Both the position numbers and the translations under genes were made by a program. DNA of 61,847 nucleotides, filler included, from a bacterium (lineage in GTDB: Bacteria > CLD3 > SB21), in the NCBI GenBank assembly GCA_013360215.1. It is 7 parts of 7 records of this genome, joined end to end, with 100 filler letters (N's around TTAATTAATTAA, not from the genome) between each part and the next. Parts side by side here need not be neighbours in the genome. Positions count along the whole stretch, not along the records: positions 37,758 to 44,088 come from JABWCP010000052.1; 6 more parts are not named here. One strand, given 5' to 3'. The notes beneath the pieces are model-generated. The model did not search any database, was not told where the DNA came from, and worked only from the letters and a program-made list of their open reading frames with translations. Within the stretch, counting starts at the first letter, position 1. Each line of letters opens with the position of its first letter. Below are positions 14,490-58,321 of this stretch, piece by piece.

Positions 14490-14509
14490 GTGATTATAGG
14501 TTTGATGTT

Positions 14510-25310: not shown

Positions 25311-26057
25311 TGGACTTGCTATATTGTAAAGGACACTGAGTTAAGGTAAATTAACTTAACAAAATGAGGTCAGAATCATGCACATTATCATAAGGCAGTT
25401 CACAGGCGAGTATAAGCTTGAGACCGTGCGATTAAGCTATCAGCGTGGTAGTATAGTGGAGTTAGCCTCCGAATTAGGCTTGCGTCCGTCATTGATTTAT
25501 CGTTGGCGTAGCGAGTTTGAAACAAGCGGTGAAAAAAAATTTTCCGGGTAACGGCCATAGCCGGACTAATGAGGATGAAATTGTACGTCTCAAGCGAGAA
25601 TTGGCGGATGGACTTGGCTGATCGTCAGATCATAGGATGGTCATTTTCTCAATCTATGACGAGTCAAGCTACGGCCATTACAGCCTTTCAAATGGCATGT
25701 ATTAAGCGTAAGCCTGCTCATGCGATGATCTTTCCTGACCGGGGTAGTCAGTATGCGGCTGAAGCTTTTCGTAATCTTTTGGCTAGTTATGGAATATGTC
25801 AGAGTATGAGCCGCAAAGGTAATTGTTGGGACAACGCTGTAGCGGAATCCTTCTTTAAAACCCTTAAAACGGAATTACCAAAAGGGTATCAAAAATTGAC
25901 GTATGAAGAGCTTCGCATGCAGATATTTGAATATATCGAAATTTGGTATAATCGAAAACGTTTACATTCGGCGTTGGATTACAGAACGCCTATGGAAATG
26001 GAATCTTTATTAACACTTGTCGCTTAACCAACTGTCCACTTTTATGTGGCAAGTTCA
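25311..26057 (+). mobile_element. Internally deleted IS3-family element (747 bp)
   Basis: TG...CA ends with imperfect IRs (TGGACTTGCTATAT...GGACA vs TGAACTTGCCACAT...GGACA). Frameshifted orfA (RQFTGEYKLETVRL...ASELGL...LIYRWR) fused to an orfB C-terminus (DLADRQIIGW...DRGSQY...SMSRKGNCWDNAVAESFFKTLK...YNRKRLHSALDY). Confidence 0.88.
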
Positions 26058-30600: not shown

Positions 30601-30700
30601 NNNNNNNNNNNNNNNNNNNNNNNNNNNNNNNNNNNNNNNNNNNNTTAATTAATTAANNNNNNNNNNNNNNNNNNNNNNNNNNNNNNNNNNNNNNNNNNNN
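30601..30700. other. Artificial contig linker
   Basis: 44 N + TTAATTAATTAA (stops in all six frames) + 44 N. Confidence 0.98.
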
Positions 30701-33700
30701 TCGTATCGTATCCGCTCCGCTATGGGACTCCGCATACGTCACCGCATCACGCAGTGAACCGGCACCGGCATCGTTGGTATTGATGACTAATAGCGGATCG
30801 ATAAACGGCGCAGAAAATCCCGACGTCTGTTCATTATATTCCTGAATCGCTGTATAGCGTGTACCTCCGACAGGTGTTACGTTGGCGGTCCAGTTACCGG
30901 AGCCATCCGCACGAACCGTATCTAAGAAATATTCACCTTGATCGGCAGAATCGGCGTAAACGTACACTAGCGCATTACTGTTTGCCGTACCGGCAACTAT
31001 TCCTCCATACGTCCCCAATGTAATCGTAGGAGGATTTATACCCTGCTGCGCACCACCGCTGATATCAATACCGCCGCCGACGTTTTTATAAATAAAATTG
31101 TCGACAAGCAAATTACTGTCAGTTTGTGCACCTTGAATAGTAATACCAAAGTTTCCGTTGTATGCAATGTGATTTGAATCAATTAGATTATTAGATGGAT
31201 AAGAAAATCCATTATCGATAAGTACGATACCGTTCTGCGAATTGCCGATTGGGCCATATTGCATACCGATATTGTTACTAAAGATAGTATTGCCAAATGA
31301 CAACTCTTCAATACGAATGCCATCGCCTGTATTTCCGGTTATCGAATTTCCTTCGACCCAAGCATTGGAATGATTAAAAAGTACAACACCGGCAGTGCCA
31401 TTAGCGCGTTGAATCGTGCCTGTAACGTCAAGACCAATACTGTTTGCTTGAATTTTCACTTTACGACCATATACAACCTGAATTCCAGTAAATGAATTTC
31501 CTGAAATATAATTACTCGTTATTTCAGTGCTATCTGATACGGTATAGATACCATATCCTGTATTTCCGATAGCGTTGTCACCATTGACATCAAGACCAAC
31601 GAAATTGCCTGCGATACGTGTTCGACTAAAATTATAAATACCATGACCTGAATTACCGGAAATAACATTGCGCCCTCCGACAGAACCGTCACCGATTTCA
31701 TTATCCACTCCATCCTGAATGGAAATACCGGCGTTAGAATTCGGAACAGCTGTCGTACCTGCGAGATCAAGCCCGATCAAATTGCTGCGTACTAAGTTAC
31801 TATCCGTGCCAACATCTTCTATGGATATACCGAAATTGCTATTGCCGGAAATAATGTTTCTACCTGAGACCGTTGCGTTCCCGATATTAGCGTGCGTTGT
31901 TCCGTTGTTTAACCGGACACCAAAGCTGTTGCCTACGGCTGCGTTTCCAGACGCGTTGACACCAATATAGTTTTGCAATACTAGTGTGGAATCGGCGTCG
32001 CTCAACACGATACCACCGTCAGGATTACCCGATATGATATTGGCCTCAGCCGGAGCCGACAAACCAATTTGATTTTTTATACTTCCGCTTATGTAAACAC
32101 CGCTTCCAATACCCAGTGCCGTGGTACCGTCTGCACCGACACCGATATAGTTACCGGCAATGAGATTAAAATTGGAATTATTTGTAATAAGTACATGCGA
32201 AGCCATATCAGCGCCGCTACCACCGGCACCCATCACATTGCGCCCACCTGCGGTACCGTCTCCGATGATATTGTGATTGGATTGATTATCCAGCGTAATA
32301 CTTGAACCCCCACCGCCGCCGGATTGGTTGGCCAAAGCCATATTACCATAGACATCCACACCAAGGTAATTGCCTAAGATTGCATTATATGTTGCACTAT
32401 CGAGATAAATCCCTGCGCCGTTAAGATTAGCTTGCGAATTATCGACAATCACATTTCCGGAGCCAACCGCTGTACCGCCGATCGTATTGGCGTGAGCACG
32501 TAATAAGTGAATTCCGTATCCTTGATTGCCGAGTGCCCCGGTTCCGAGAGAATCCAAGCCGATAAAGTTGCCGGTCACGATGTTACTATCTGATTCGACA
32601 CGAATACCATTCCGACCGTTGCCGGAAATAACGTTATATGATCCGCCGACACCGCCGATACGATTGTATCGTGCTTGATTGCGTATCATAACACCGTCCG
32701 AACTGTTGCCTGATTCCGTAATACCGTCGGCCGTACCGATGAAATTACCATAAACGATATTCGAGTCCGTCCCGAGCCCCTCAATCAGAATACCGAATCC
32801 TGTAAACGCGTCCGTATTGTTATAAATATAATTTCGACCTGCGATGGTGCCATCACCGATACGGTTATGGTGCGCGCCATTGAAAATATTAACACCATCA
32901 TTATTATTATATATTCGGCAACCGACGATAAGGTTGTATGCGCCTCCGTTAATATCAATACCGCTCGCCATCGAACCAAAACCGGTAATATTCAAATTAC
33001 GAATTTCGTTGTAATTCGAATTAATCGTCAAACCGATAGGTACATTAAACGGGGCACCGTTTAATGTGATATCCGGTAAACCATTCATATCAATATCACC
33101 GTCAATCACTGTCGAATCATCTGTGATATCGGGCAGCATTGTAGCAGGAAAAATAGTTTGCCCCACCATCGGTACATCAAAACGAATGGTATCAGGCCCG
33201 GCATGCGAATTGGCATAGTTGATTGCAAAACGCAAACTTCCCGTGCCGGAATTATTGTTATTGGCAACGAGTGTCGGATCCGTTAAGCCAAACGGCCATG
33301 TATTAACGGCAAAACCGGACGTGTTACCGGCACTATCTTGTGTAGCCGTTATGTTATAGCCAAAATAATTACGTAAGGCCAGGCGAACATCACCAAGATA
33401 ACCGCCCGATGCATCGGCAAATCCTGTAATCAAAGGGATTTCACCCTGAGATCCGGCATCCGCAAAAACTTGAATGTATGCACCCGGGGCCGCCTGTATT
33501 GCAATCGTCGAATCTTCAAACATGGCCTCAATACGCGGCGGTGCAACGCCACCCTGCGATCCAGAAACGTAATTGATACCACCCAAAGTATTGGCAAATA
33601 AGACATTCTGATCCAATTGATTACTATCCGCATCACTGGCTCCGTCCGCTTCGACGCCATAAAAACCGTTGTGTGCGATGATATTTGCGTTAAAATAATT

Positions 33701-36700
33701 ACCGGTGGTATTAAAAGAAGGGATCGAATAAAGGCTGATACCATTTTGTCCGTTACCTCGGATCAGGGATCCGTCAGCTCCGACTCCGATGTAATTATTG
33801 CGAATCAAATTATTTTCTGCCTTGGCAGCCGTAGCAATGATACGTATACCATGGCCCGCGTTCGAAGAAATAATATTACGACCGGAGGCCGCTCCGTTTC
33901 CTATGAAATTAGCGCTGGACTGCTGGAGTATTATCCCGGTACCTCCGTTGGCAAACGTAGCCACTCCTGCCGTTCCGAGACCAATAACATTCTTATATAT
34001 TTCATTGGAATCCGAAGATGAAAAAATCAAACCGTCGTTGGTATTTCCCGAAATGGTATTACCCAGCGATTCGCCTATTTTATTATACTTCGAAGAAGAC
34101 ATAAAAATACCGGCGCTGTTGGGACGCACAAGATTTCCAGCCGCATTCAAACCGATAATATTGTTATCTACAATACGGTACATACCACCGGTAATATACA
34201 TGCCCTCGCTGTTGTTTGAAGCCACCACGTTATCTCGTACGATGGTATATTCGTCGTTCGTCAACGATACACCATAGCTTTGATTACCAAGCGCTGTGTT
34301 CCCATTGGCGCCGAGGCCGATATAGTTTCCGGTAATGCGAACACTGTCGCCACCGCTAACTCCGACACCGAACGTGGTATTATCGGAAATCACATTACGC
34401 CCGCCAATCGTGCCATCGCCTATCCATATATTATTGGATGTGGACACGGAAACGCCCGCGTTGTTTCCCAACGACGCATTGCCGGTCACATCAGTTCCTA
34501 TATAATTACCTAAAACCCATATTGAATCCGTGTTGGTTATCTGAATACCAAAACTCAGATTACCGGAAATCAGGTTTCCACCAGGCACTGTACCGTCGCC
34601 GATGTGATGGAATCTTGAGTTTGGCCCAATAGAAATACCATTACTACCTCCGAGTCCGTTGAGTCCATCTTTGTCGGTACCTATCTTGTTCCCGATAATG
34701 GTAAACCCATTGATAGGAAAGGAAAATGCACTATTAAGTTGGATAGCGTTGGTATTACCGTTAATCACATTATTCTTGATCGTCCAGCCTTGTTGAGTAA
34801 TACGATAAGTAACATAAATGCCGTTGCCTGGACGCAATGCGACAGTGCCCGAAGCATTCGTACCGATCAGATTATCTAAAATCATCGTCGTATCCACCGT
34901 AGCATCGGAACCACCGTAAATACCCGTTCCACCGCCCGCGATAACATTACGGAACACTTTGTTATCTTCCGCCGTCAACGTGATCCCTTGCGCATTCGCA
35001 CTGATAAGCCCGAAATGGTTATACTGAATCGTTGTGAACGGCGCATCACTTATGATTCCATTGGAAGTAAATCCGTCTATATGAAATCCCTGTATGGTGA
35101 CACGAAGCGCCGTCGCGGACAAATTAAAACCATTAGAAGTACTTCCCTGCCCGTCTAAAAATATATTGGGCAAACTATCATTATTAATATCGGCATTGAT
35201 AAACGTAGAGTCGTCTGTCAACATTGGAAGAGCCGATGCAAGTGAGATGGTAGCTCCATCAATATTAGTTGCAAAACGAATCGTATCGGCACCCGGATTA
35301 GCATTGGCAAAATTGATAGCCGATCGTAACGTACCAACGCCATTGTCAAGAATCGACGTAACAAGCAGCGGCATGGCACCCGACGCGGTAAACGTCGGAC
35401 CGTTAATCAACGTACCGTCATTATCACCGGCCGTAACATCGTATGTCGTCGTACCACTGGATTCATCAAAGTGCCAAAGCCCGGCAAGGCCTGCTTCATC
35501 ACCACGAAGAGGTTTGTGCATATCCGCCACAATTTCCGATTGTGTGCGTGCCACATTCCACACTCGCACTTCGTCAATTTCTCCATTCCAAGCACGACCG
35601 GGAAAACTATAATTATTTCCGATCCAAATCGGCGCATCCGATAAATCAATCGGACCCGAAGCGCCTGAAATACCATCCAATTCACCATCCACATAAAGAC
35701 GCAGTTCGGAATTTCCTATATCGTACACCCCTGCTACGTGATGCCATAACCCATCGGCAACATCTTTGGAGCCACTGACGTTACCGGGGCCTGACGCAGC
35801 AAAATACAATGCGTTTGTCGCGTTATTACGCGTCAAGCGATACGTATTATCACCTTTGGTGACAATCGCTTGCCACACTTGATCAAAGCTATTGACACGA
35901 ATCCAAGCTTCCAGCGTTACTGAATTTGTAAAATCAAAAGCCGCTTCGTTGGCGATTTCCACATACGAGCTACCATTGAAAACAAGCGAATTTCCGGCAC
36001 CGGCCGCTGGAATTGCAACATCTTGGTTGGAGTAAGCACCTTGTGCCGTTCCGGCATTTACGGCGGCTACGCGGTAATACTGAAATGTTCCGTTAGCAAC
36101 GGTTATCGTTTTCGAGGTATCAGAGATACCTCCTGTAGTCGAATCAATTTGGGCTGTCGGATTGGGCGCGGGGCCTGCAAAAATACGATATTTGATAATA
36201 TCATCTTCCGCACCCTTTCTCCATTTCAGAACAATGCTGTTATTTTGTCCCATCGCAAAGAAACCGGATGGTGCAGTCGGAGGATGATTTCGAAGATCCA
36301 AAGCTATTCCGCGACCTTCGTTGGGCAATGTCAAGAGTAGCTCATCTCCGCTTCCGTCCAAATTAATTCGGCGGATTTGTTTAGTTGAAAGGCCTGTAGC
36401 GTAGTACAACTTATCGGCAATGGTATCAATAGCTAAAACATTTTGATCAAATCCGGAATTAGTTGAAATTACCGTAGGGGATCCACCACTCATGGGCGCG
36501 TTTTTGATTTGATCGAAATTTTGATTTCCCCAATAAATTTTCTGTGTTCTAGCATCTAAAACAAGCCCCCAAACAAATGTTTCAGTATACAAATTTTGTT
36601 GCGAAGTACCGTCTAAATTAGCCCGACGAATATTCGTATTGTCGGAATAGTATATTTTGCCACCTGCAACATCCACAGCCAAACCTGTCGGAGAAGATAA

Positions 36701-37216
36701 ACCGCTGACAAGTGTTTCCATCCCGGTTCCGTCAAAATTACCTCTATGGACAGTACCGCCAAACCAAGACGTCCAGTAGATTTTCTGAGCCGCAATATCT
36801 AACCCTAAACCACGCGCCCCACTTGATGAAAACAACAATTCATCGCCACTCCCATCGAGATTCGCCCGGCGAACTTGTCCGCCGCCGTACAGTGTGTAGT
36901 ACATTTTACCACCGGCAATATCCAGTGCTATACTCCAAGGCTGTACAAGGCCGGAATGTACCGTTTGACCACTACTTCCATCAAGTTTAGCTTTGATTAC
37001 CGGCGAAGGATTCGTGTTCTGGGCGTAATACATTCTTGGGCCACTAATCGTCTGCGAATATGACTTCGGAACTGTCACTAACCCAAGAAGCCAAAAGCAG
37101 AGGATCCAAGAAACTGCAAATGTAGCAATTTGTTGGGTTACCTTATTCACAAAAATGAATGTTTTTTCGTTGGATAAAAAAGTAAAATTACCTGAGGCTT
37201 GTAAAACTCTTCCCAT
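30701..37216 (-). CDS. Giant secreted surface protein/adhesin, 5' part (YWTD propeller, FN3, LamG, repeated beta-helix modules); 3' truncated
   Basis: More than 2170 codons open to the contig end. Signal peptide; LDIAGGKMYYT/LDIAAQKIYWT/RRANLDGS repeats; FN3 (YYRVAAVN); LamG (TLEAWI...WHHVAGVYD...LYVDG...GEIDEVRVW); GSLRxAI caps; many GNxIG repeats. Confidence 0.88.
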
Positions 37217-37657: not shown

Positions 37658-37757
37658 NNNNNNNNNNNNNNNNNNNNNNNNNNNNNNNNNNNNNNNNNNN
37701 NTTAATTAATTAANNNNNNNNNNNNNNNNNNNNNNNNNNNNNNNNNNNNNNNNNNNN
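37658..37757. other. Artificial contig linker
   Basis: N44-TTAATTAATTAA-N44. Confidence 0.98.
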
Positions 37758-38100
37758 GATTGTTTTGCTCAGTGGTTCATTGCGGTGTTTAGCTGAGCCG
37801 ATGCAACGTTTTACGCAAGCCGAAGATTTGATTTGTTCGGAAACGGAAATCGTAAACAACCGATATACCGGCGAAATGAGTTCACTGCATCCGTACGGCG
37901 AAAACAAAAAGACATTAGCGATACGTTATTGTACAGATCATCAAATAGCTGAGAGAAACTGCCGGGCCTACGCCAATGAGTGGGCGGATCGTTTTCTTAT
38001 GGAGGCTGTCGGAGAAGCGGTGGCCGTGGATCCGGATGAAAATTTAGAGCGACTTGCACGAATAAAAAAATGGAAACAAATTAACATATATCATGGCTAA
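37758..38100 (+). CDS. HAD-IB (SerB-like) phosphatase, 5' truncated
   Basis: IVLLSGS (motif II), YTGE...PYGENK (motif III Lys), AYANEWAD (motif IV), VGEAVAVDPD. Confidence 0.8.
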
Positions 38101-39529
38101 ATCTTTTTTTCTAAAACAGGCAGCTTGGTTTAAAGATTCTTTACAGGAGTTCACTGTCCCGGATGAGTTTGAAATTGACATGATAGCTCCAGTTGATGCC
38201 CCGGCATTGTCGCGGGACATGATAAAAGAGTCTATTTATCATCCCTTTGGTCCTTCGCTAAAAAATTTAACCCAAGGTAAGACCAAAATTGTTTTCGTGG
38301 TTGATGATCTCGGTCGCCCGACTCCAGCGCATGATATTATTCCTTATGTTTTAGAAATTTTAAGTACCTCCGGCGTGCTTTCGCAAGATATCTCATTTAT
38401 AGTAGCAACGGGATCTCATCGACAACTTTCCCGCGAGGATATGGCGCGCAAAGTCGGTGCAACTATCGTTGACTCGTACCGTGTCACATGCCACGATGCA
38501 TTCAAGTCACCATTAAAAGATCTCGGATATTCGAGAAATGGCTTTCCGTGTATTGCTAATAAAGAGGTTGCTGAGGCTGATCTTATTATAGGTATCGGTT
38601 GTGTTATTCCTCATTCGTGTCACGGATTTGGCGGAGGTGCGAAGCTTTTTTGTCCGGGTATTGCAGGTATGGAATCCATTGTCACCATGCACGGGTTTAC
38701 GCCCAAACGGGGGCGAGGGAATATTGATAATCCAAAGAATGATTGGGATATGCGCTCGGCGTCGGAGGCATTTGTGGCAAAACTACCCCCGATTTTTCTC
38801 ATTAATGTTGTCATGAATTCACAACGCGAAATAAGCGCTATTTTTTCAGGATCTATCCAGAACGTTTTTGAAGCCGCGCGAATAAAAGCGTCTGAAGTTT
38901 ATAGAACAGAAATTTTGGAAGATCAAAAAACAAAATATGATGTGATTTTGATTAATGCTTACCCACTGGACTCAGATCCGGTGCAGTCTGCTAAAAGTCC
39001 TTGGGTGAAAAACATGTTTCCAGATACAATTCAAATTCATATCAACTCGTCTGCGGATGGTGTTGATTATCATGGTTGGAAAGTATTCAGGCGAAGTAAT
39101 TGGTTCACCTTGGTTGTAGCGTCTATCGCTGAGGGCCTAACATTTCCAATAGTTCCCAAATTTTTTAATAATATTTCATCTTGGCCGATCATTCGTTTCC
39201 TCCGAGAACATTTGGTCCGACTGCTTGTACGAATATCACATGCGGATTTTGACACTTATTTATCGTGTCGAGTTGCGATTGAAAAGAGTAAGTCAAGAGA
39301 AGCATCGTCAGTATCAGGCCCGGATAGAAACCGTACCCCTTGGGTTTATTCAGAGTATTTTACGGATGCCGAATTCAAAAAAAAATACAGTAAAGGTACT
39401 CTATTTAAAGATTGGAAATCTGTAGTTGAAGGCATAAAAAAGTACTATCCCAAAGCCAAAATAGCTGTAGTCACTTGCGCACCGGTTCAAATTCCTGTGG
39501 TGAAAGGATCTCATGATAGCACTCATTGA
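38093..39529 (+). CDS. LarA-family (nickel-pincer-dependent racemase/epimerase) protein
   Basis: VVDDLGRPTP, ATGSHR, HDA, LG...G.P...NKEVAEADL, PH...GFGGGAKLFCPGIAG...H motifs of the lactate racemase N-terminal domain. Confidence 0.85.
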   Translation: MAKSFFLKQAAWFKDSLQEFTVPDEFEIDMIAPVDAPALSRDMIKESIYHPFGPSLKNLTQGKTKIVFVVDDLGRPTPAHDIIPYVLEILSTSGVLSQDISFIVATGSHRQLSREDMARKVGATIVDSYRVTCHDAFKSPLKDLGYSRNGFPCIANKEVAEADLIIGIGCVIPHSCHGFGGGAKLFCPGIAGMESIVTMHGFTPKRGRGNIDNPKNDWDMRSASEAFVAKLPPIFLINVVMNSQREISAIFSGSIQNVFEAARIKASEVYRTEILEDQKTKYDVILINAYPLDSDPVQSAKSPWVKNMFPDTIQIHINSSADGVDYHGWKVFRRSNWFTLVVASIAEGLTFPIVPKFFNNISSWPIIRFLREHLVRLLVRISHADFDTYLSCRVAIEKSKSREASSVSGPDRNRTPWVYSEYFTDAEFKKKYSKGTLFKDWKSVVEGIKKYYPKAKIAVVTCAPVQIPVVKGSHDSTH

Positions 39530-40703
39530 TGCACGTAATACTGATAGTTTCAGCAAACTTTTTGATATCACCTTGATTGAACGCATTCTTCGTCAGGTGT
39601 GGGTGGTCGGAGTTCGTGAAGCGTATCTGTACGCGCCTAAACAATCAGTAAATCTTAAAGGGGAATTTATAAAAAAATTTCCTATGAAATTTGGCGCGAT
39701 TCGTGCATTAGATGAATTACCAAAAGATCAAAACGATGTTATGATTTTTGACGGTTCGGCTATTTATGATGATAGGATTATAGATGCTTTAACAAAATCT
39801 GAAAACGATGTTTCGATTATTGATGGACTTAATCCTGATACGCCCATAGCCGTTCGATACACTAATAATCAAACGTGGTCAAGTGTAACTATTAACGATA
39901 AAAAATTCACAGAAGTATTCAAAAGTTCGACCATAAAAGATATACAAACAATGGATACGTATGTCAAATTTTTACGTAAATCATACATCCCTACGTTACG
40001 TTTTGTAAAAGCAGAAGATAACCTGCGAACCATTGAGAATGATCTTTTCGAAAAAACATTTAAATCAGGTTTGGAGTGGATTGCAATATACGGGTATAAG
40101 ATCCCGGTTCGCGAAATGACGAGATTATGTGCGAAAACATCCGTTACGCCGAATCAGATTACAGCCGTAGCCATATTCTGCCGATGGGCGTCTATACCTT
40201 TGTTATTTGGAGGTTGGCTTGCGCTCGGACTAAGTTTGATTGTATTATTTGTTGTTTTAGATTCTTTGGATGGCAAACTTGCCCGAATGACGTTTCGATT
40301 TAGTGAACATGCTGACTGGATTGATCATGGCTCCGTACTACCCACACGTCTTGGCTGGTATGCGGGGTTGGGATGGCACTACAGTTCTGGTGTATGGTCG
40401 TCACAAGCGGGTATGCTAACTATCATAACATTAGTTTGTATAGTTTTGGATGATCTCAATTGGGCTGTTGCCAAACGAATTTTTAAACGTACTCTTTTTG
40501 ATATTACTGATTTTGATGCAAAAGCGCATTTGTTTACTCATCGCCGCAACGATATGTTTTTGATGCTTAGCGGTTATCTTATGGGGTTAGGGTTGTATTC
40601 GTTTTATTTAATTTGCGGGTGGGTCGTGGTCACGTGGATCTGGCATTGCACGCGAATTGTCTATTTATCGAACGATAGTAGCTTGTCAAAAGAAAGAAAT
40701 TAA
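39513..40703 (+). CDS. Nucleotidyltransferase-like / CDP-alcohol phosphotransferase fusion 1
   Basis: N-terminal LFDITLIERILRQ...GVRE; C-terminal membrane domain with VTPNQIT and LDSLDGKLAR (DxxDGxxAR). Confidence 0.82.
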   Translation: MIALIDARNTDSFSKLFDITLIERILRQVWVVGVREAYLYAPKQSVNLKGEFIKKFPMKFGAIRALDELPKDQNDVMIFDGSAIYDDRIIDALTKSENDVSIIDGLNPDTPIAVRYTNNQTWSSVTINDKKFTEVFKSSTIKDIQTMDTYVKFLRKSYIPTLRFVKAEDNLRTIENDLFEKTFKSGLEWIAIYGYKIPVREMTRLCAKTSVTPNQITAVAIFCRWASIPLLFGGWLALGLSLIVLFVVLDSLDGKLARMTFRFSEHADWIDHGSVLPTRLGWYAGLGWHYSSGVWSSQAGMLTIITLVCIVLDDLNWAVAKRIFKRTLFDITDFDAKAHLFTHRRNDMFLMLSGYLMGLGLYSFYLICGWVVVTWIWHCTRIVYLSNDSSLSKERN

Positions 40704-40720
40704 TAAATCGAGATCTAAAA

Positions 40721-41935
40721 TTGTTGAAATTAACAGCCCATATATTACTTACGAATGATTTTGAGCAATATGCTCACCGAGAGGTTTATGGAGTAACATT
40801 CGTTGAAAGGCTTATTCGGCAGTGTAAAGAATTAAAAGTGCATTCCATTAATGTATGGAGTGAAAAAATTATGTTTGTTCACTCGGATGTATACTGTCGC
40901 CCGTTCAATGAATGGAATCAATATATGTCTCAACTGCGAGTTCGTGAAGAAGAGCGAATTATTATTATTGATTCTAATATCATCGCGGATGATCATTTGA
41001 TCAAATATCTGGTCTATCACACGGGTTCGTTGGCAATTACAAATCAGTACCACATAGTTGGAGTAAATACTTCCAGATTGGCTAAAAATAACACCGATGT
41101 TTTTTCCTTTGAAACCGCCAAGAAGTATGTGGCTAATTTTGATCCAAAAGTGATAGAGCCGAATGAAATGAATAAGTACGTTCATGAGTTACGTTTGCAA
41201 TTCGTGCCTTACTTTTTCGTTTATACGCATGCTTTGGACATTCGTCAAATGCAAAACATCATGTATGAAGCTAACTTTAAGGGTACACTTGATTTTATTG
41301 CTACCTACGTGTATAAATATCCGGTTCGAGAGATTACGAAATTTTTAAGCCGCCATTCTTGGGTGACCCCGGATTTTCTTACTATGCTGAGTATCGTCAG
41401 TTCGTTTGTTGTTCCGTTGCTATTAGCTTTCGGTGAAATGGGATGGGCCGTTTTGGTGGGTTGGCTCATGTTCATTTTTGATTCCGTGGACGGGAAATTG
41501 GCGCGACTGACCGTTCGGCTTAACCCGACGATGGGCGTGATCGAACACGCTACGAGTGCCCCAGCTATTTTTTTGTGGTTTGCCGGTCTGGGCTGGTATT
41601 TTTCAAATGGGCAACTTTTAGAGTTTACCCATCCGGCTTCGGCTACGGCGTGGTCGCTGATGGCGCTGTATTGGTTAGATAAAGGGGTCAATGGAATATT
41701 CAAACCGCGCTTCGGTATTGATTTGTATAACTATGCTCCGATAGATCGTTTCTTTCACCTTTTCGCCTGTCGCCGCGCGATTATACATCTTATCATTACC
41801 GTGGGGTGGGCGACCAGCTATCGCGATGAAGCGTTTTACTTTTTAGGTATTTGGATGGTCATCAGTTTTATGTTTCATTTGTTTCGTTGCGGATGGATTT
41901 TAGCTACGGACGAACCTCAAACTGTGGCCGAATAA
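40721..41935 (+). CDS. Nucleotidyltransferase-like / CDP-alcohol phosphotransferase fusion 2
   Basis: VYGVTFVERLIRQ; VTPDFLT; FDSVDGKLAR. Paralog of fusion 1 (FKGTLDFIATYVYKYPVREIT vs FKSGLEWIAIYGYKIPVREMT). TTG start. Confidence 0.82.
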   Translation: MLKLTAHILLTNDFEQYAHREVYGVTFVERLIRQCKELKVHSINVWSEKIMFVHSDVYCRPFNEWNQYMSQLRVREEERIIIIDSNIIADDHLIKYLVYHTGSLAITNQYHIVGVNTSRLAKNNTDVFSFETAKKYVANFDPKVIEPNEMNKYVHELRLQFVPYFFVYTHALDIRQMQNIMYEANFKGTLDFIATYVYKYPVREITKFLSRHSWVTPDFLTMLSIVSSFVVPLLLAFGEMGWAVLVGWLMFIFDSVDGKLARLTVRLNPTMGVIEHATSAPAIFLWFAGLGWYFSNGQLLEFTHPASATAWSLMALYWLDKGVNGIFKPRFGIDLYNYAPIDRFFHLFACRRAIIHLIITVGWATSYRDEAFYFLGIWMVISFMFHLFRCGWILATDEPQTVAE

Positions 41936-41998
41936 ATACACTGTGTGATTATTGCTACAAAAAAGAAATTAATACCAATAGTTTAAACCTATTCAGTG

Positions 41999-43420
41999 AT
42001 GATTCAAAACGCGATAATAATTGCAATAAAATCAACAAACGACGCACCGGATTTTGATACGTTGTACGGCGGAGAGACGTTGATCGGGCGGGCGCTAGTG
42101 GCGATGAGTAAATCCGGCATGAAATATGTAACGATAATATGCCGAATGTCGGATCGTACACTCATTGAACGTTGTGTTAAAGAAGTGGATGCCGAACGCA
42201 TCAGTGTATCTCCTACGATCCATAGTATGGATGATGACGTAAATTTAAGTAAAGCCGTTAATGAGATTACAAAATCATCAGAAAGCACATGGATGCTGAT
42301 GACATATGATAAAATCATTCATCCGACTTTCATTTTGCCGGTACGCGAATGCGTACAAACGCCGGCATTGATTACGTATAACGGCGTTATGCGTCAAGGG
42401 GATAAGGTTATTTTTGGCGAAGAGATGGCGCCCAAGTTTCAAACCCAATTTCAGGATGTTTCGATTTTTGATATGGTATCTGTACAGGATAATAAAGTGA
42501 AAACATGGAATACAGCCGACGCGCCGCACTTCTCAGCCGGAATTTTAGTCGCTCGTAACGCGGATCTTGTTTTAGCAGAAACTTGGCAAAGTATATCTGA
42601 ACTCATAAAGTTTTTTATAACGAAAGAATTATTGAAAACGGTTTCTGTCAGCAACGGTTGGTGTATGCCGGTCAATAAATCTATTCCACCGTCGGTAATA
42701 AAAAACGTTTTTTGGAAAATGGCTTTTAAAGAAATCAGCGGAGAATTTTCTAAAGCTGTGAATAGTAAACTATCCAAACCGCTTACATTTTGGTTTAGCG
42801 CGCACCAGTACAAACCGGATACGATCAGTAATATGTCGCTCGTGCTTTTTATTGTAGCGTCGGGGTTTTTGTTAATACCGGAATACTGGGCTATGGTCGT
42901 TTTTGCCGTAGTTTGGCAGTTTTCAGCCGGCGTGCTGGATCGTTGCGATGGCGAAGTGGCACGTATGCGTAATCATGAATCCGAGGCCGGCGGAAAATTT
43001 GACATGATCGTGGATGACTTACGATTTGCTCTACCTCTGATGGCGTTAGGTGTGGCGTGTTCCCTGGAATTACCGGATGTGCGATACGCCATTGTAGCTG
43101 CGATCACGCTTGCGGGGAGTTTTGCTATTACATTCTTTGAACAAGCTACAATGCGCCGTTTTGGTTATGTGAGTCGCCAAAAACTGAACGTAGATTATCT
43201 GAAAGCCAAAGGTGATACCAGCCGCTTCAGCACCACAATGAAAAAACTCCAACCCGTATTCAAAGGTGATATTCGTACTTTTTATGTGTTTTTGCTGACT
43301 TTTCTCGGCGAGAAAACCATTATTTTTTGGGTATTAGTGTTTTATCATGTATTTGTAAGCGCTCTTGCTTTATTCGGTGCGCTGACGTTTCCGCGATTAA
43401 TAGCGAAAATGAAAAAGTGA
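41999..43420 (+). CDS. Nucleotidyltransferase-like / CDP-alcohol phosphotransferase fusion 3 (IPCT/DIPPS-like architecture)
   Basis: MIQNAIIIA...YGGETLIGRAL...SGMK; complete motif LDRCDGEVARMRNHESEAGGKFDMIVDD. Confidence 0.87.
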   Translation: MIQNAIIIAIKSTNDAPDFDTLYGGETLIGRALVAMSKSGMKYVTIICRMSDRTLIERCVKEVDAERISVSPTIHSMDDDVNLSKAVNEITKSSESTWMLMTYDKIIHPTFILPVRECVQTPALITYNGVMRQGDKVIFGEEMAPKFQTQFQDVSIFDMVSVQDNKVKTWNTADAPHFSAGILVARNADLVLAETWQSISELIKFFITKELLKTVSVSNGWCMPVNKSIPPSVIKNVFWKMAFKEISGEFSKAVNSKLSKPLTFWFSAHQYKPDTISNMSLVLFIVASGFLLIPEYWAMVVFAVVWQFSAGVLDRCDGEVARMRNHESEAGGKFDMIVDDLRFALPLMALGVACSLELPDVRYAIVAAITLAGSFAITFFEQATMRRFGYVSRQKLNVDYLKAKGDTSRFSTTMKKLQPVFKGDIRTFYVFLLTFLGEKTIIFWVLVFYHVFVSALALFGALTFPRLIAKMKK

Positions 43421-43544
43421 AATTATTCATCTTATTTGATTGGAAAACAGTTTACCCCCTTTTAATATGAGGATGCGTCAATTTATAGTTTCTTTTAAAA
43501 TACCGGTTAATACATAAAAGTATGAAAACAAAGTGAGGGGATAT

Positions 43545-44088
43545 ATGCGCTTCATGCAAGGTGTAATATTTACATTGAGTGCGTTGATGGTGATCGTGTG
43601 GATGGAGCCGGTTTCAAAGGCCGAAGCAGGTGGTGATTCTATTTTGATAGAAGATTTTACTTCGTCCAATACGGGTCAATTTCCGAAAGGTTGGGGATGG
43701 TTGGACGGGACGTCGGTTAAAAAGATAAATGAAGCTAAACCCGGTGAAGTACCGTATGTGGTGATGGAAGAAAACGGTAATAAATTTTTACGTGCTGATG
43801 ACAAAGGACAAGCTATCACGATCGTGTCTGATAAAAAATGGAATATCAAAAAATATCAATGCATCCAATGGCGTTGGCGTGTCAATCAATTTCCTACCGG
43901 GGCCAATGAATATGCCAAAGGCAAAACTGATAACGCGGCCAGCCTGTATATCAGTTATTATGTGAGTTTTATCGGCATACCGCGCAGTATCAAGTATATT
44001 TGGAGTAATACGCTTCCGGAATGCGAAACTTTCCGAAAAGATGGTACAGGAAAGGCGACGAATATAGTCGTGGAAAGCGGCACCTCCA
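43545..44088 (+). CDS. DUF3047-family secreted protein, 3' truncated
   Basis: Signal peptide; WRWRVNQFP.GA.E..K..TDNAASLYI...IKYIWSNTLP...IVVESG. Confidence 0.75.
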
Positions 44089-44188
44089 NNNNNNNNNNNN
44101 NNNNNNNNNNNNNNNNNNNNNNNNNNNNNNNNTTAATTAATTAANNNNNNNNNNNNNNNNNNNNNNNNNNNNNNNNNNNNNNNNNNNN
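44089..44188. other. Artificial contig linker
   Basis: N44-TTAATTAATTAA-N44. Confidence 0.98.
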
Positions 44189-45358
44189 GCTGTTCACAAC
44201 CAGCGTGTCACGGCTTATGCCAAACACTGTCGGAGCGAATTGTACATCCACATAAAGCGTATCGCCGCTAAACAATGTATCCGGCAAACTCATACTACCG
44301 ATTTCAAAATACGCACTCATATTCGTCACGCCTTGCACGATCACCGCACCGCCTGTAGCATAAAGTTTGATGTTCGCTTGCGCGCTATCGCTTACAGCGA
44401 CATTACCAAAATCATAACTTGACGGTATCGCCACCAGTGTACCCGGCACGCCAATACCATCCAGTGTTATATTCATACCACCGTTAGTCGCATTGCTGCT
44501 AACACGCAGCGTATCCGTTTCGATACCAAAGACACCTGCATTATACTGTATCGTTACACTCAGTGTATCGCCTGCGTACAACGTCGAAGGCCCTGTCGCC
44601 GATACTACCTGGAATGCCGGACCGGCCAGCGTACTGCTTACCGTTACGGCACCACCCTGACTGTAAAACTTGATCGTCTGCTGTGCATTCTGACCAACCT
44701 GTACATTACCAAAATTCAGCGCTCCGCTACTCGCCAGCAGCGTGCCTGATGCACCTGTACCTGAGAATGCTACAGTATATGTTGATGCGAACGAGTTATT
44801 CGTAAGCTTCAGTGTGTCCAGAGTCGTCGTAAACGTCGTCGGTTTATAACGTATCGTATACACCAACGTATCACCGCTGAAAAGAACACTCGGACCACTC
44901 TCCGAAACAATCGTATAACCGCCGCCATTGAGTGCGCTGCCGCTTACGGCGACTGCACCACCATTGCTGGCCAGTTTGATCACCGCATCCATACTATCAC
45001 CTACAGCCACATTGCCAAAATCATAACTTGAAGGCAATGCCACCAGAGTTCCCGACACGCCTGTACCTGAGAGCGCGACCGTATATGTCGAAGTTACCGA
45101 GTTATTCGTAATCTTCAACGTATCGAGAGTCGTCGTAAACGTCGTCGGTTTATAGCGTATCGTATATACCAGCGTATCACCTGAATACAATGTTGATGGG
45201 CCGATCGAAGATACGATCGAATAACCGCCACCATTGAGTGCAGTGCCGCTCACTGCAACCGCACCACCATTGCTGGCCAGCTTAATCACCGCATCCATAC
45301 TATCGCCTACGGCTACATTACCAAAATCATAACTTGAAGGCAATGCAACCAAAGTTCC
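44189..45358 (-). repeat. Intragenic tandem repeats of 303-306 bp (Ig-like domains)
   Basis: Units begin at 45358, 45052, 44746 and 44443 (GTLVALPSSYDFGNVAVGDS...). The first two units are nearly identical in protein. Confidence 0.9.
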
Positions 45359-48300
45359 CGGGATACCTGTGCCCAAAAGCTCTACCATCAGCGGAGATGA
45401 ATTCTGACCATTGTGATTGACCGATATCGTATCGCGTTCAATTCCAAACACATTAGCATGATATTTTGCATACACCCGCATAGTGTCAGTCAAACCGAGA
45501 AACGTAGGACCGCTAACGGAATCAATATCAAACGAGCCACCGGCCAACATCGATGGCATACCGCTGATCAGCACGTTACCGCTTACAGCAAACAATTTAA
45601 CTTCCGTTATGGATGAAGAGTCACCGACAGGAATATTACCAAAGTCGGGATTGACCACAAAGGCACCCAATGTACCGGAAACACCCGTGCCATAAACTGC
45701 AACATGTGTTATTGATTCGTCGGCATCATTGCTTATAATGGTGACCGAATCTGCATAACTGCTAAATCCATCCGGCAAGAAACGAACAACCAGTTTGACA
45801 GAATCGCCCGGAGTTAATGTGAGATTATTGGGCAGGGTATCCACAATTGTAAATTGGGGACTCCCGCTCTCAATTGAAAGCGAAGTAATATCCAGAGCGC
45901 CGGCGCCAATATTTTTTACAAATACTGTATCTATCTGACCGTTACCACTCAATATCCCGCCGTAATCTAAGTACGTGCCGGTCAAAGTATATACGACGAT
46001 CTCCGGTTGCGGTGCAAATGGCATCGAAAACGCCGAGGTACCCTGCGCACTATCCTGCATAGCCGTAATCGCAGTACCTGCAGGAATATTTACTTTCAAC
46101 GACCAGTCGCCAGACGCATTGGCCGTCGTCGTACCAAGGGTAAAGCGACCTTGGTTAGCGGAATCAGCAAACACCTGAATAAAGGCGTTAGGTGAAGCCT
46201 TGCCATACACGGTCGAATCCGTTCCGACAGAAGTAATCTGCGGGGGCACGATATCGCTTTGAGTACCTGTTTCTAAATAGAAGCCATTACCGTTTCCAAA
46301 AATCACATTATCGCGCACAATGATACTGTCCGTTCCAGAATTCAGCATCGCAATCGCATTGGTGCTGCTATAGGCGATTGTGTTTCCGATGATCGAATCG
46401 CGCGATGCTCCGCTGCTAAGATTGATAGCGTCGCTGGTATTGCCCAGATTTTCCGTACCTGTTACATCCGTACCTATATAGTTACCCTGAATTTTGTTTT
46501 CAGCACTCTTGATAATCCACACACCATAGTTGGCAGACGCTGAAATTATATTCCGTTCAGCCGCCGTAGCGCCGCCGATCAGATTAAGTCGGGGTGAACC
46601 GGAACCGCCTTCATTAATTGTAACTCCGACACCGTTACCGATTGCCGCCATTCCATTGATATCGGTTCCGATAAAATTACCTTGGACAAGATTGGAATCC
46701 GATCCCAAATTGGTAATTTCAACGCCGCTATACGTGTTACCAGAAATCACGTTTCGTGCTCCGGCAACCGTACCGCCGATCCGATTTGCATGAGCACTAT
46801 TGAGTACCACTCCGGATCCGTTGGATATCGCTGCATTACCTGCAGCGTTCGTTCCGATCAGATTACCTTGTATGATTTGCCCGCGCGTACCAATATTACC
46901 TACGACTACAGCAGCACCATTGTTACCGGATATTACGTTACCGGCTCCCGGCAATGTGCCGCCAACGACGTTATCATGCGCTTGATTGAGAATGAATATG
47001 CCGCTCTGCGTATTGCCCAAATCAACATTTCCGTTTATATCGGTACCGATATAATTACCTTGTACCACGTTATACGCAGAGAATCCCTGCATCATAATAC
47101 CGCTGTTACCATTTCCGGAAATAACATTGCGATGATTGGATGTCAATCCACCTATCGTGGTATGCATGGAATTATTATCAAGTGCAATACCCCACGAACC
47201 ATTGCCGAGATCAGACGTACCGTTGATGTCCGTTCCGATGAGGTTTCCCCAAACGTAATTGGAATCTGTGCCCGCATCCGTAATGAGAATACCGGTATTA
47301 GTATTACCGGAGATGACGTTTTGATTTACGCCAAGGGTATCACCGATCTCATTGTATTTGGAACCGCCGATTAAAGAAATACCGATGAGGTTAGGATAAC
47401 CGATGATACCGGACGCATCCGTTCCGACCAAATTATCTTGTACCTTATTATAAGAACTACCGGCAATCAATATACCCGACTGCGGATGATTGGAAATCAC
47501 ATTACCGATGATCTGACTTCCACCGCCGGCATCTAAAGCAATACCGTGATAGTTATTGGGGATCGTAGAATTATCCGAACCGATACCGATGCGATTACCG
47601 CGAATCGTATTAAGAGGACCCGCCGCATAAATACCAGTACTGTCATTGCCGGCGATAATATTACTATCGACAGTCGCCATCGCAAAAATATACACACCCA
47701 AATCTTGATTACCCAATCCGATGGTTCCGGTAGCATCCGTACCGATACGGTTATTACGTATCACCCAGTTAGCACCGGTCGAACCAACACCACCCCAAGC
47801 ATTGTTATAGATCGTACTATTGATCACGGAGTCATTACTCGTTTGGCCGATGATACCATAACGCTGAGCATTACGAACTGTGAGGTTTTCAGCTTTACTG
47901 TTATTACCTGTAAGGCCTGCATCATCAAAGAAAATTCCAAAACGCGCCTGTGCCGAACCGTTTTGTGCATCCAGCGTCATATTTCGAATCGTTACGTTCG
48001 GTGATTGAACACTAAATATTGTATTATCGCCAAATGGGAATGACACGCTCACCTGTACCGTATTATTATTTGTTTCACCGTCAATAACAACCGGTCCCGA
48101 AGCATCATTGATCTCCAGATCCGAATCAATGAGTATTGTAGCATTGGAAATTGCAAAACGAATGCTATCAGCGCCTGGCAATGATGCAGCGGCGGCAATC
48201 GCTGCGCGCAACGATCCATCACCTGCGTCAGCCGTGTTTTTAACAAGTAGGGGATCAAAATCAGCAGAAACATCGGCTGAATAGCCTCCCGCCTGACCGG

Positions 48301-50224: not shown

Positions 50225-50324
50225 NNNNNNNNNNNNNNNNNNNNNNNNNNNNNNNNNNNNNNNNNNNNTTAATTAATTAANNNNNNNNNNNNNNNNNNNN
50301 NNNNNNNNNNNNNNNNNNNNNNNN
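50225..50324. other. Artificial contig linker
   Basis: N44-TTAATTAATTAA-N44. Confidence 0.98.
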
Positions 50325-55169: not shown

Positions 55170-55269
55170 NNNNNNNNNNNNNNNNNNNNNNNNNNNNNNN
55201 NNNNNNNNNNNNNTTAATTAATTAANNNNNNNNNNNNNNNNNNNNNNNNNNNNNNNNNNNNNNNNNNNN
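55170..55269. other. Artificial contig linker
   Basis: N44-TTAATTAATTAA-N44. Confidence 0.98.
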
Positions 55270-56497: not shown

Positions 56498-56563
56498 TCG
56501 CACATCAGTTGTTCACGGCCAACGTGATTTTAAAAACAAATATATTTTATAGGTCTTAATTAC

Positions 56564-57409: not shown

Positions 57410-57442
57410 GCTGTTTTTTGTAAACTTTCAAAATGAAAATTT

Positions 57443-58297: not shown

Positions 58298-58321
58298 GCC
58301 TATCTATGGCGTAAATTATTA

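Follow-up and report, generated by a model that had tools for sequence, protein, structure and literature searches.

A gene cluster combining a LarA homologue with three CDP-alcohol phosphotransferase-like fusion proteins, and its possible role in envelope lipid or glycan synthesis

In both the PgsA/PGP-phosphatase and the DIPPS/phosphatase routes, a CDP-alcohol phosphotransferase acts on a phosphorylated acceptor and a phosphatase follows. Fused enzymes of this kind are represented by AF2299 and IPCT-DIPPS of Archaeoglobus fulgidus (PDB 4o6m/4o6n and 4mnd), in which a cytidylyltransferase-like cytosolic domain lies N-terminal to a 6-TM CDP-alcohol phosphotransferase domain. This family forms homodimers, and in PIP synthase the fourth Asp of the signature (D4) is the putative catalytic base, and its replacement by Asn nearly abolishes activity with substrate binding kept (Clarke 2015, PMC4634129). 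In Bacteroides vulgatus and Prevotella, an NTP transferase, a CDP-alcohol phosphatidyltransferase and a HAD hydrolase are encoded together, and such a triad has been described as a putative, unconfirmed inositol-lipid route (Heaver 2022, PMC9246714). The LarA superfamily has been surveyed by Desguin 2020 (PMC7583248), in whose Table S1 the LarA-homologue (LarAH) groups 14-16 are linked at 88-100% to HAD-IB-type phosphatases, groups 14 and 16 also to PlsC and group 15 to FadD, and by Urdiain-Arraiza 2024 (PMC11770544), who reported glycerate-specific LarAHs.

Organization of the locus

The window, the whole stretch of 61,847 nucleotides analysed here, consists of several contigs joined through N44-TTAATTAATTAA-N44 linkers. 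The operon lies on a contig that covers positions 37758-44088 only (6.3 kb) and has artificial linkers at both edges (37658..37757 at its 5' end and 44089..44188 at its 3' end); the giant genes flanking it are thus on other contigs. All six genes of the contig are on the plus strand: a HAD-IB phosphatase cut at its 5' end (37759..38100; ORF 37765-38100, with the frame open as far as 37758, where the contig starts), LarAH (478 aa, 38093..39529; Lar_N, 5.7e-46), the CDP-alcohol phosphotransferase-like proteins CPT1 (396 aa, 39513..40703; CDP-OH_P_transf, 1.4e-4), CPT2 (404 aa, 40721..41935; 2.6e-6) and CPT3 (474 aa, 41996..43420; PF01066, 1e-9), and a DUF3047 protein cut at its 3' end (43533..44088; PF11249, 4.3e-15). 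The database copy of CPT3 begins at an ATG one codon later.

The first-pass annotation had identified the HAD, LarA-like and three CDP-alcohol phosphotransferase-type genes correctly according to Pfam and NCBIfam HMM matches, and its overlaps of 8 and 17 bp and its gap of 17 bp agree exactly with the ORF coordinates; it missed the sixth co-directional gene, DUF3047, which is part of the unit. No terminator-like site was found between the operon genes, the promoter and terminator counts being at the level of shuffled sequence. The tight coupling of the genes, including the 17-bp overlap of the LarAH stop with the CPT1 start, and the absence of an intergenic terminator-like site fit a single transcript.

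Of the roughly 213 residues of HAD-IB, the gene retains 113 at the C-terminus, its 5' part being lost at the contig end, and matches PF12710 (3.8e-08) and TIGR01490 (1.2e-13). Full-length orthologues (213 aa) have an FDIDGT motif, and the copy in locus L006 scores above the TIGR01490 cut-off (107.4 versus 98.3 bits). The nearest models are those of phospho-amino/hydroxy-acid phosphatases (histidinol-phosphatase and SerB). HAD-IB is not beside LarAH in L004, L009 or any Latescibacterota-type locus, and the phosphatase step is therefore not universal. At the other end of the operon, the DUF3047 protein has a hydrophobic, signal-like N-terminus and is predicted to be secreted; its orthologues come after CPT3 in L003, L004 and L006.

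The LarA homologue and the phosphotransferase-like proteins

LarAH shares with the LarA superfamily the Lar_N domain and the two-domain LarA fold: its AlphaFold model (pLDDT 89.7) matches LarA 9eia over both domains (Foldseek E 1.4e-24, TMt 0.78). The equivalents of LarA D72, R75, H108, H174, K184, H200, Q295 and K298, which comprise the two catalytic His, the tethering Lys, the His that binds Ni and the carboxylate site of Arg, Gln and Lys, are all kept and are invariant across 33 orthologues. LarAH is thus predicted to be a nickel-pincer-nucleotide-dependent 2-hydroxyacid racemase or epimerase of a separate clade. It falls under the cut-off of every named or curated LarAH model (best 185.9 bits versus 500), has several clade-special invariant Arg (R206, R208, R221 and R245), and carries S-C-H where LarAHs of listed specificity have F-F, E-V or Y-F after H174. 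Its C-terminal domain is about 45-50 residues longer than that of LarA and unalignable by sequence; the alignment ends near residue 323-368, leaving W358/T359 of LarA unaligned. These two positions are said to set LarAH specificity. No larB, larC or larE was found among the 43 window proteins and 123 neighbour proteins scanned.

The genomic context also differs from that of described LarAHs. Membrane phosphotransferases and glycan genes surround LarAH here, a context that groups 1-22 (part 1 of Table S1 in Desguin 2020) do not show, and COG0558, COG2244, COG1213, 'phosphatidyltransferase' and 'flippase' have no match in either supplementary file of that study. The nearest parallel in context is with groups 14-16 (NF052592), in which LarAH likewise has a HAD-IB (COG0560) phosphatase and lipid-metabolism genes as partners; since these groups pair with HAD-IB and PlsC, the combination of LarAH and HAD-IB in a lipid context recurs. 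However, the window LarAH matches NF052592 weakly (45.5 bits versus a cut-off of 740), retains both catalytic His in contrast to these groups, and has CDP-alcohol phosphotransferase-like proteins instead of acyltransferases as partners.

The first-pass annotation had described CPT1, CPT2 and CPT3 as IPCT/DIPPS-type fusions, each with an N-terminal nucleotidyltransferase-like domain and a D-x-x-D-G-x-x-A-R membrane domain, and this holds for fold and architecture. The motif is found in all three proteins. The AlphaFold model of CPT1 (pLDDT 86.6) matches AF2299 (E 1e-9, TMt 0.74) and IPCT-DIPPS, with structural matches of its N-domain to RmlA, IspD and KdsB; CPT2 can be aligned to the CPT1 family from end to end; and CPT3 aligns to the IPCT/DIPPS model NF041135 over residues 26-451 (8.7e-12; 44.7 bits versus a cut-off of 580), to PDB entries 4mnd (4.3e-08) and 4o6m (3e-07), and to a relative bearing a true AAGMGTRL loop. 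The profiles of the CPT1/2 and CPT3 families match each other with 99% probability (E 9e-18, 294 columns). As a description of the whole proteins, however, it is too strong. The nucleotidyltransferase-like domains are degenerate: the G-x-G-x-R loop is lacking in all three proteins, in 26 of 26 CPT1/2-family sequences and in all but one of the 17 in the CPT3 alignment, the exception not being the window's CPT3. Identity to the A. fulgidus enzymes is 13-17%, and the organisms here are bacterial, with three paralogues in tandem.

The membrane domains differ among the three proteins. Only CPT3 has, as the A. fulgidus enzymes do, the full eight-residue signature (D-x2-D-G-x2-A-R-x8-G-x3-D-x3-D), which is canonical in 17 of 17 sequences of its family alignment. 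The 6-TM domains of CPT1 (DSLDGKLAR-x8-A-x3-DH) and CPT2 (DSVDGKLAR-x8-M-x3-EH) instead lack the second Gly and the fourth Asp and have an invariant His after the third acidic residue. Within their family, Asp at D4 is absent and the second Gly replaced in 25 of 26 members each, whereas D1, D2, G, A, R, D3/E and the next His show either no change or only conservative replacement from phylum to phylum. Judged by these residues, CPT1 and CPT2 form a rare subfamily in which the CDP- and metal-binding residues are kept, the catalytic-base Asp is replaced and an invariant His stands beside the third Asp. The nearest relatives of CPT2 are copies of Latescibacterota/Gemmatimonadota type.

Conservation in relatives and rival explanations

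Among 47 loci retrieved with the LarAH profile, 39 belong to the LarAH clade, and a CPT1/2-class gene lies near LarAH in 16 of these within the DNA retrieved; the gene combination is thus conserved in other genomes. The 16 comprise all seven relatives of the window's own clade and nine Latescibacterota/Gemmatimonadota loci with another gene order. In the window's own clade (the window, L001-L006 and L009), CPT1 is directly downstream of LarAH in 8 of 8 cases, mostly overlapping. In eight of the 13 tree rows of the Latescibacterota/Gemmatimonadota clade, and in the fragment L036, a string of flippase, GINT1_N protein, GT4 and CPT2-like genes converges on LarAH, so that LarAH is not co-transcribed with it. 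The linkage therefore persists, at a LarAH identity of about 36%, where the genes are ordered and oriented differently. It changes three times on the LarAH tree, a count as low as which was reached in none of 500 shuffles, co-occurrence statistics being inflated by relatedness. The retrieved DNA of the other 23 loci has no CPT gene (17 Caldilineaceae, five PhyH-flanked Latescibacterota/Gemmatimonadaceae, and L020, whose sequence breaks off within its larA gene).

As the window operon is truncated at both ends, its upstream genes were deduced from those of relatives whose LarAH is 45-58% identical. Their gene string contains an NTP transferase matching the IPCT half of NF041135 (4e-19), GT4 glycosyltransferases, GmhA (207 bits), a MOP-type flippase (Polysacc_synt) and a short PgsA-like transferase (2.3e-18), the gene of which overlaps the HAD gene, as would suit the PgsA/PGP-phosphatase logic; the phosphatase, however, is of HAD-IB and not of PgpA/B/C or IMPase type. 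LicD and a cytidylyltransferase are among the neighbours in L003. These upstream genes speak more for an envelope product, a flipped glycophospholipid or glycan, than for a cytoplasmic solute. We therefore estimate a probability of about 55% that the contig holds the 3' portion of a conserved operon with which uncultured bacteria affiliated with Bacteroidota make a phosphodiester-containing envelope glycolipid or lipid-linked glycan, with rearranged versions in Latescibacterota and Gemmatimonadota. The earlier suggestion of a lipid headgroup, solute or surface decoration is narrowed accordingly.

A compatible solute of the di-myo-inositol-phosphate or diglycerol-phosphate type, for which CPT3 would condense a CDP-activated polyol phosphate with a hydroxy-acid phosphate before dephosphorylation by HAD, appears very improbable. 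The best curated and solved matches of CPT3 are indeed IPCT/DIPPS (NF041135 and 4mnd), a phosphatase gene lies within the operon and relatives have an IPCT-like NTP transferase upstream; yet the MOP flippase, GT4 enzymes and secreted DUF3047 share the gene string, no myo-inositol-phosphate synthase (MIPS) occurs among the 123 neighbour proteins scanned, CPT3 scores far below the NF041135 cut-off and the fused domains lack the G-x-G-x-R loop. It is unlikely, though less so, that the cluster encodes a plain phospholipid head-group pathway similar to that of B. vulgatus with LarAH as an unrelated or loosely related neighbour. L002 and L006 have exactly the triad of NTP transferase, CDP-alcohol phosphatidyltransferase and HAD beside LarAH, a likeness at the level of gene types to a cluster that is itself unconfirmed. 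Against this, LarAH is translationally coupled to CPT1 throughout the window's clade and still lies beside CPT2-type clusters in a second clade without the triad, MIPS is missing nearby, and GT4s and a flippase belong to the conserved core; the fused CPT paralogues and DUF3047 are further additions to the triad. Improbable, too, is that LarAH acts not on a carboxylic acid but on a polyol phosphate used by the phosphotransferases, such as glycerol phosphate or inositol phosphate, inverting one of its secondary alcohols: hydride transfer transiently oxidises the carbinol carbon, so that by the mechanism in Desguin 2020 a carboxylate would not be needed in principle, other hydride-mediated reactions are conceivable according to that study, PgsA-like and IPCT-like enzymes abound in the context and the clade-special Arg are invariant, but so are the carboxylate-holding equivalents of R75, Q295 and K298, the three LarA-family papers compared describe 2-hydroxy-acid activity only, and the HAD-IB neighbour is nearest to histidinol-phosphatase and SerB models.

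A more serious, if still doubtful, alternative concerns CPT1 and CPT2, which would be predicted inactive because of the published D4 mutagenesis (PMC4634129). As pseudo-enzymes binding a CDP-ligand and metal, they might be heterodimer partners of CPT3, in a family known to be homodimeric, or a membrane dock for LarAH, which CPT1 always directly adjoins in the window's clade, leaving catalysis to CPT3 and the short PgsA-like enzyme. The near-universal loss of D4 and the second Gly is consistent with this. However, a CPT2-like gene is the sole CDP-alcohol-phosphotransferase-like gene seen in the cluster of eight Latescibacterota/Gemmatimonadota-type loci, and the residues kept across phyla also fit a working site; CPT1 and CPT2 may thus perform a variant transfer with His as the base or be CDP-binding non-catalytic partners.

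Proposed pathway

For the envelope glycolipid or glycan, we infer the order of inversion, linkage and dephosphorylation. LarAH would invert C2 of a small, probably phosphorylated 2-hydroxy acid, the leading guess being glycerate/3-phosphoglycerate or a phosphorylated sugar acid. The CDP-alcohol phosphotransferases would then join a CDP-activated partner, either CDP-diacylglycerol or a CDP-head-group that the separate NTP transferase supplies, to the hydroxy acid through a phosphodiester, and HAD-IB would take off the remaining phosphate, as in the two-step routes described above. Sugars may be added by the GT4 enzymes, and the flippase would carry the product outward; there it may be a target of the secreted DUF3047 protein.

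Consistent with the first-pass view that such a combination was undescribed, no published description was found: our literature search returned no paper with both a CDP-alcohol phosphotransferase and lactate racemase, and CDP, phospho and polysaccharide do not occur in the 2024 LarAH survey. The association of a predicted hydroxy-acid-flipping nickel-cofactor enzyme with phosphotransferases, glycosyltransferases and a flippase suggests that these uncultured bacteria make a cell-surface lipid or glycan not yet described.

The operon contig and its LarA homologue

The operon occupies a contig of 6,331 bp (37758-44088) with six ORFs, all on the plus strand. A HAD-IB fragment, assigned by Pfam and NCBIfam, is open at the contig start and runs to 38100; it is followed by the LarA homologue LarAH (478 aa, Lar_N; 38093-39529), by three membrane proteins with CDP-OH_P_transf domains, namely CPT1 (396 aa; 39513-40703), CPT2 (404 aa; 40721-41935) and CPT3 (474 aa; 41996-43420), and by a DUF3047 protein cut at the contig end (43533-44088). 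The tight packing described in the first-pass annotation (an 8-bp overlap, a 17-bp overlap and a 17-bp gap) is exact according to the ORF coordinates, and Pfam and NCBIfam searches located the HAD-IB, Lar_N and CDP-OH_P_transf domains where they were to be expected. The CPT2-CPT3 and CPT3-DUF3047 spacings are 60 and 112 bp. Promoter-like sites on the contig number 20 against 17.1 in shuffled sequence, and terminator-like sites 8 against 6.1, none of the latter being intergenic; these shuffle-level counts neither prove nor disprove a single transcript. An Rfam scan of the contig returned no RNA family.

Six linkers of the form N44-TTAATTAATTAA-N44 (30601-30700, 37658-37757, 44089-44188, 50225-50324, 55170-55269 and 58728-58827) mark the window as a concatenation of at least seven MAG contigs, so that adjacency across a linker is not synteny. 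The giant minus-strand genes that flank the operon (30701-37216 and 44189-50224) thus belong to other contigs and are uninformative on its neighbourhood. Their products exceed 2000 aa, carry Laminin_G_3, beta-helix/NosD and Ig-like repeats, are both truncated where their contigs end, and probably reside at the cell surface. Elsewhere, one short contig carries four tandem class-I SAM methyltransferase paralogues (55649-58726; Methyltransf_11/25 and CMAS-like matches), the last cut at the contig end, and a 152-aa integrase-core (rve) fragment at 25569-26024 is probably an insertion sequence remnant. A hybrid two-component protein (19705-23493, minus strand) combines Reg_prop, HisKA, HATPase_c, receiver and AraC HTH domains, a make-up typical of Bacteroidota and consistent with the nearest loci being labelled as members of that phylum.

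LarAH belongs to the LarA superfamily by its domain content (PF09861, Lar_N, at 5.7e-46), and its AlphaFold model (pLDDT 89.7, pTM 0.90) was matched by Foldseek to LarA 9eia over both domains (E 1.4e-24, TMt 0.78). Alignment to 5huq and 8ezf recovered equivalents of all of the LarA residues D72, R75, H108, H174, K184, H200, Q295 and K298. Across 33 full-length orthologues (34-64% identity), D72, R75, H109, H174, K184 and H200 of LarAH are invariant, including the two catalytic histidines (H109/H174), the K184 tether for the cofactor (nickel-pincer nucleotide, NPN) and the Ni ligand (H200); equally invariant are Q298 and K301, which correspond by alignment to the carboxylate-binding Gln295 and Lys298 of LarA. 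In the C-terminal domain, the profile alignment to LarA structures ends at about residue 323-368 and does not reach equivalents of the LarA specificity positions W358/T359.

LarAH reached no cut-off of the curated NCBIfam equivalog models for named groups (LarA, MAR LarAH5/6, LarAH10, LarAH14-16 and hexonate epimerase): the best score was 185.9 bits against 500 (NF052593), and the remainder were 162.5/460, 146.1/540, 138/462, 45.5/740 and 35.7/500. The residues following H174, S-C-H, fall outside the specificity patterns given in the accessible text of Urdiain-Arraiza et al. 2024 (PMC11770544). In a tree of 45 sequences, from which L020, L036 and L043 were omitted as too short, LarAH falls within a 38-row clade with support of 100/100, apart from ordinary LarA-like proteins. 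We regard LarAH as a functional NPN-dependent racemase/epimerase of 2-hydroxy acids, as predicted from these features. Neither the 43 proteins of the window nor the 123 neighbour proteins scanned included a larB, larC or larE product. Longer LarAH forms were absent at 838-2390 aa, and the 'near' search (262-837 aa) listed none longer than 493 aa; thus there is no Rosetta-stone fusion in either length range. A LarAH-CPT1 complex prediction, run without controls, scored 0.00 and counts neither way for binding.

Three fused membrane phosphotransferases with divergent signatures

CPT1, CPT2 and CPT3 alike carry the D-x-x-D-G-x-x-A-R motif. The CPT1 model (pLDDT 86.6) matches AF2299 4o6n (E 1e-9, TMt 0.74), IPCT-DIPPS 4mnd and PIP synthases; it also matches 5d91 and has six long helices (residues 213 to 386), in keeping with a six-TM fold, and its N-terminal domain matched RmlA, IspD and KdsB. 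Residues 26-451 of CPT3 align with NF041135, the IPCT/DIPPS model, and the profiles of the CPT1/2 and CPT3 families match each other at 99% probability over 294 columns, N-terminal domain included. These matches establish that the fused architecture proposed in the first-pass annotation is real. Its assignment of the fusions to the IPCT/DIPPS type holds for the architecture but fails at the active cytidylyltransferase loop and at the NF041135 cut-off, against which CPT3 scores 44.7 bits and the other two proteins 24.7 and 17.3 (cut-off 580). The G-x-G-x-R loop is missing from all three proteins and from every one of the 26 CPT1/2-family sequences; it occurs in 1 of 17 sequences of the CPT3 alignment, the distant member P0158, and the CPT3 of the window has a seven-residue deletion at its position. 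The lack of this loop in the fused domains makes it more likely that nucleotide activation would be performed by the separate NTP transferase known from relatives.

The phosphotransferase halves of the two families differ in the eight-residue CDP-alcohol phosphotransferase signature (D1, D2, G1, A, R, G2, D3 and D4). In CPT3 it is complete, with D315, D318, G319, A322, R323, G332, D336 and D340 invariant in 17/17 sequences. CPT1 and CPT2 keep six of the eight residues: in place of G2 they have A or M, and in place of D4 there is V in CPT1 and A in CPT2. Throughout their family (26 sequences), D1, D2, G1, A and R never vary and D3 is Asp or Glu, while G2 is replaced in 25/26, Asp is absent from D4 in 25/26, and His occupies the position after D3 in all 26. 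The TM1 motif P-N-x-x-T is also kept (P213 and T217 invariant, N214 at least 90% conserved); P(D/N)xx(T/S) in TM1 is described as cytosine-binding in the accessible text of PMC4634129. According to the same portion of that study (Clarke et al. 2015), the eight signature residues are 'absolutely conserved', D4 is the likely catalytic base, and its D-to-N replacement nearly abolishes activity with substrate binding retained. In light of the lost D4, the conserved His and this mutagenesis, CPT1 and CPT2 may be either variant enzymes that use the His or CDP-binding, non-catalytic partners. A third motif variant was observed in locus L037, whose CPT2-like protein (12184-13464, minus strand) keeps G2 and D3, has Asn at D4 and lacks the His after D3.

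Both families are rare. A word-indexed search of 5.8 billion clusters yielded 21 CPT1 relatives, and a search among 1.84 billion gave 17 CPT3 representatives with E of 1e-30 or below; the cluster search also found a 99%-identical copy of CPT1 on a 58,422-bp contig. In the ESM Atlas, CPT1 and the DUF3047 protein led to generic CDP-OH_P_transf and generic DUF3047 clusters only, respectively, and a sequence search of the PDB gave no relative of the DUF3047 protein with E of 1 or less.

Conservation of the LarAH-CPT link across genomes

A scan with the LarAH profile, taking one genome per species, gave 47 loci, whose ORFs were searched with the window proteins and with seeds taken from the loci; 123 neighbour proteins were compared with Pfam and 19 with NCBIfam. 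The pairing of LarAH with a CPT gene, part of the combination singled out by the first-pass annotation, recurs both in the window's own clade (the window, L001-L006 and L009; MAGs labelled Bacteroidota or 'bacterium') and in loci of Latescibacterota and Gemmatimonadota. CPT1 directly follows LarAH in 8/8 of the window's clade, and the four loci with enough DNA (the window, L003, L004 and L006) all continue with CPT3 and DUF3047. L006 alone has an insertion between these two genes (14390-18832), made up of a BcrAD/BadFG-type activase of 1028 aa, which also contains DUF2229, and a 444-aa protein. HAD-IB precedes LarAH in five loci (the window, L001, L002, L003 and L006), is missing beside it in L004 and L009, and has no room in L005. 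The 113-aa HAD fragment of the window scores 51.8 against the TIGR01490 cut-off of 98.3 because its N-terminal half lies beyond the contig end; the full-length orthologue of L006 reaches 107.4, and FDIDGT (motif I, DxDGT) is present in all three full-length orthologues.

The relatives also reveal the genes that would lie beyond the 5' end of the contig: a class-I methyltransferase, an NTP transferase of 276-290 aa matching the IPCT half of NF041135 (4e-19), between one and three GT4 glycosyltransferases, a Polysacc_synt flippase and, overlapping the start of the HAD gene with its stop, a 215-aa PgsA-like transferase that bears the full signature. GmhA and a further CPT1-like gene occur upstream in L002 and L006, and L003 adds LicD and a glycerol-phosphate-cytidylyltransferase-like gene. 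Matches labelled 'unk338' lie opposite GT4 genes, on the other strand of GC-rich loci, and were treated as spurious ORFs.

The second clade, from Latescibacterota and Gemmatimonadota, shows about 36% LarAH identity. Here a minus-strand string converges on LarAH in 8/13 tree rows and in the fragment L036, comprising a CPT2-like protein, GT4, in some cases a sulfotransferase, a GINT1_N protein and a flippase; L037 departs from this pattern, carrying two NTP transferases together with a CPT3-like gene. In L010, L015 and loci related to them, the GINT1_N protein (527-538 aa) lies some 1.4-4.6 kb downstream of LarAH, with the flippase on one side and GT4 on the other; L015 has a sulfotransferase in addition. 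The GINT1_N domain takes its name from the plant glucosamine inositolphosphorylceramide transferase. In five rows of a derived subclade (L011, L013, L014, L016 and L017), PhyH dioxygenase flanks LarAH instead of the CPT string and no CPT gene is nearby, which may reflect a second role of the enzyme or relocation of the cluster within the genome. No CPT gene was present in the locus DNA examined from 17 Caldilineaceae loci (about 30% identity) or eight distant LarA loci. On the tree, the association requires three changes, and a value as low arose in 0/500 shuffles, a figure inflated by relatedness; the stronger argument is that the link has survived changes in both gene order and orientation.

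A putative envelope pathway and its nearest known counterparts

LarAH is most often accompanied by a CPT1/2-class protein, by GT4 enzymes and by an MOP flippase. This set points to a membrane-assembled, flipped glycophospholipid or lipid-linked glycan with a phosphodiester, and does not indicate a cytoplasmic solute, one of the products that the first-pass annotation had entertained. In the proposed pathway, LarAH would supply the rarer stereoisomer of a small 2-hydroxy acid, probably phosphorylated; the phosphotransferases would join a CDP-activated partner to it, HAD-IB would take off the remaining phosphate, and sugars would be added before the product is flipped. The glyceroyl-alkylamine phosphoglycolipid of Thermus/Deinococcus was considered as a possible chemical analogue of such a product. 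As to the acid, glycerate or 3-phosphoglycerate is our guess. These candidates are attractive because the nearest NCBIfam models to the HAD-IB enzymes of the cluster are phosphoserine and histidinol-phosphate phosphatases, and 3-phosphoglycerate is the hydroxy analogue of phosphoserine. The existence of glycerate-specific LarAHs, described in the accessible part of PMC11770544, adds to their appeal.

Among described gene sets, the nearest is the putative alternative inositol-lipid cluster of B. vulgatus/Prevotella, which comprises an NTP transferase, a CDP-alcohol phosphatidyltransferase and a HAD protein (Heaver 2022, PMC9246714, in the portion available). L002 and L006 match this triad in gene types; unlike that cluster, the triad of the relatives has no MIPS for inositol-phosphate supply nearby, no family match having been found among 123 neighbour proteins, which places it outside the B. 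vulgatus type. A GDP-heptose-type route, suggested by GmhA in L002 and L006 and by the match of the NTP transferase to an HddC model, was set aside since L003, L004 and L009 lack GmhA and a kinase was not observed. Within the LarA superfamily, Table S1 of Desguin et al. 2020 (PMC7583248), as far as its available content goes, links groups 14-16 to COG0560 phosphatases in 88-100% of cases, groups 14 and 16 also to PlsC, and group 15 to FadD. Pairing of LarAH with HAD-IB in a lipid setting thus recurs elsewhere in the superfamily, although at 45.5 bits against 740 the LarAH of the window is not a member of these groups. A literature search found no paper combining 'CDP-alcohol phosphotransferase' and 'lactate racemase'; CDP, phospho and polysaccharide are not mentioned in the accessible text of the 2024 LarAH survey, and COG0558, COG2244, COG1213, 'phosphatidyltransferase' and 'flippase' were not found in the supplementary files of Desguin 2020.

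The boldest reading, to which we tentatively assign roughly three chances in ten, is that an NPN enzyme serves in cell-envelope biosynthesis, fixing the stereochemistry of a hydroxy acid, for example glycerate, that forms a head group joined through a phosphodiester to a lipid or glycan. The transfer would fall to a hitherto unrecognised CPT branch in which the catalytic Asp has given way to a neighbouring His, yielding a new class of anionic glycophospholipid common to uncultured Bacteroidota, Latescibacterota and Gemmatimonadota. To our knowledge, very few LarA homologues have a known physiological role; if true, the conserved link to membrane phosphotransferases, glycosyltransferases and a flippase would provide the first case of the nickel-pincer cofactor serving in envelope construction, and the finding yields a testable set of candidate LarAH substrates. 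Because their signature is broken while every CDP- and metal-binding residue is kept, the CPT1/2 proteins are naturally suited to probing the proposed catalytic-base mechanism. Should the product be identified, it would serve as a new marker, lipid or glycan, for uncultured phyla that are widespread.
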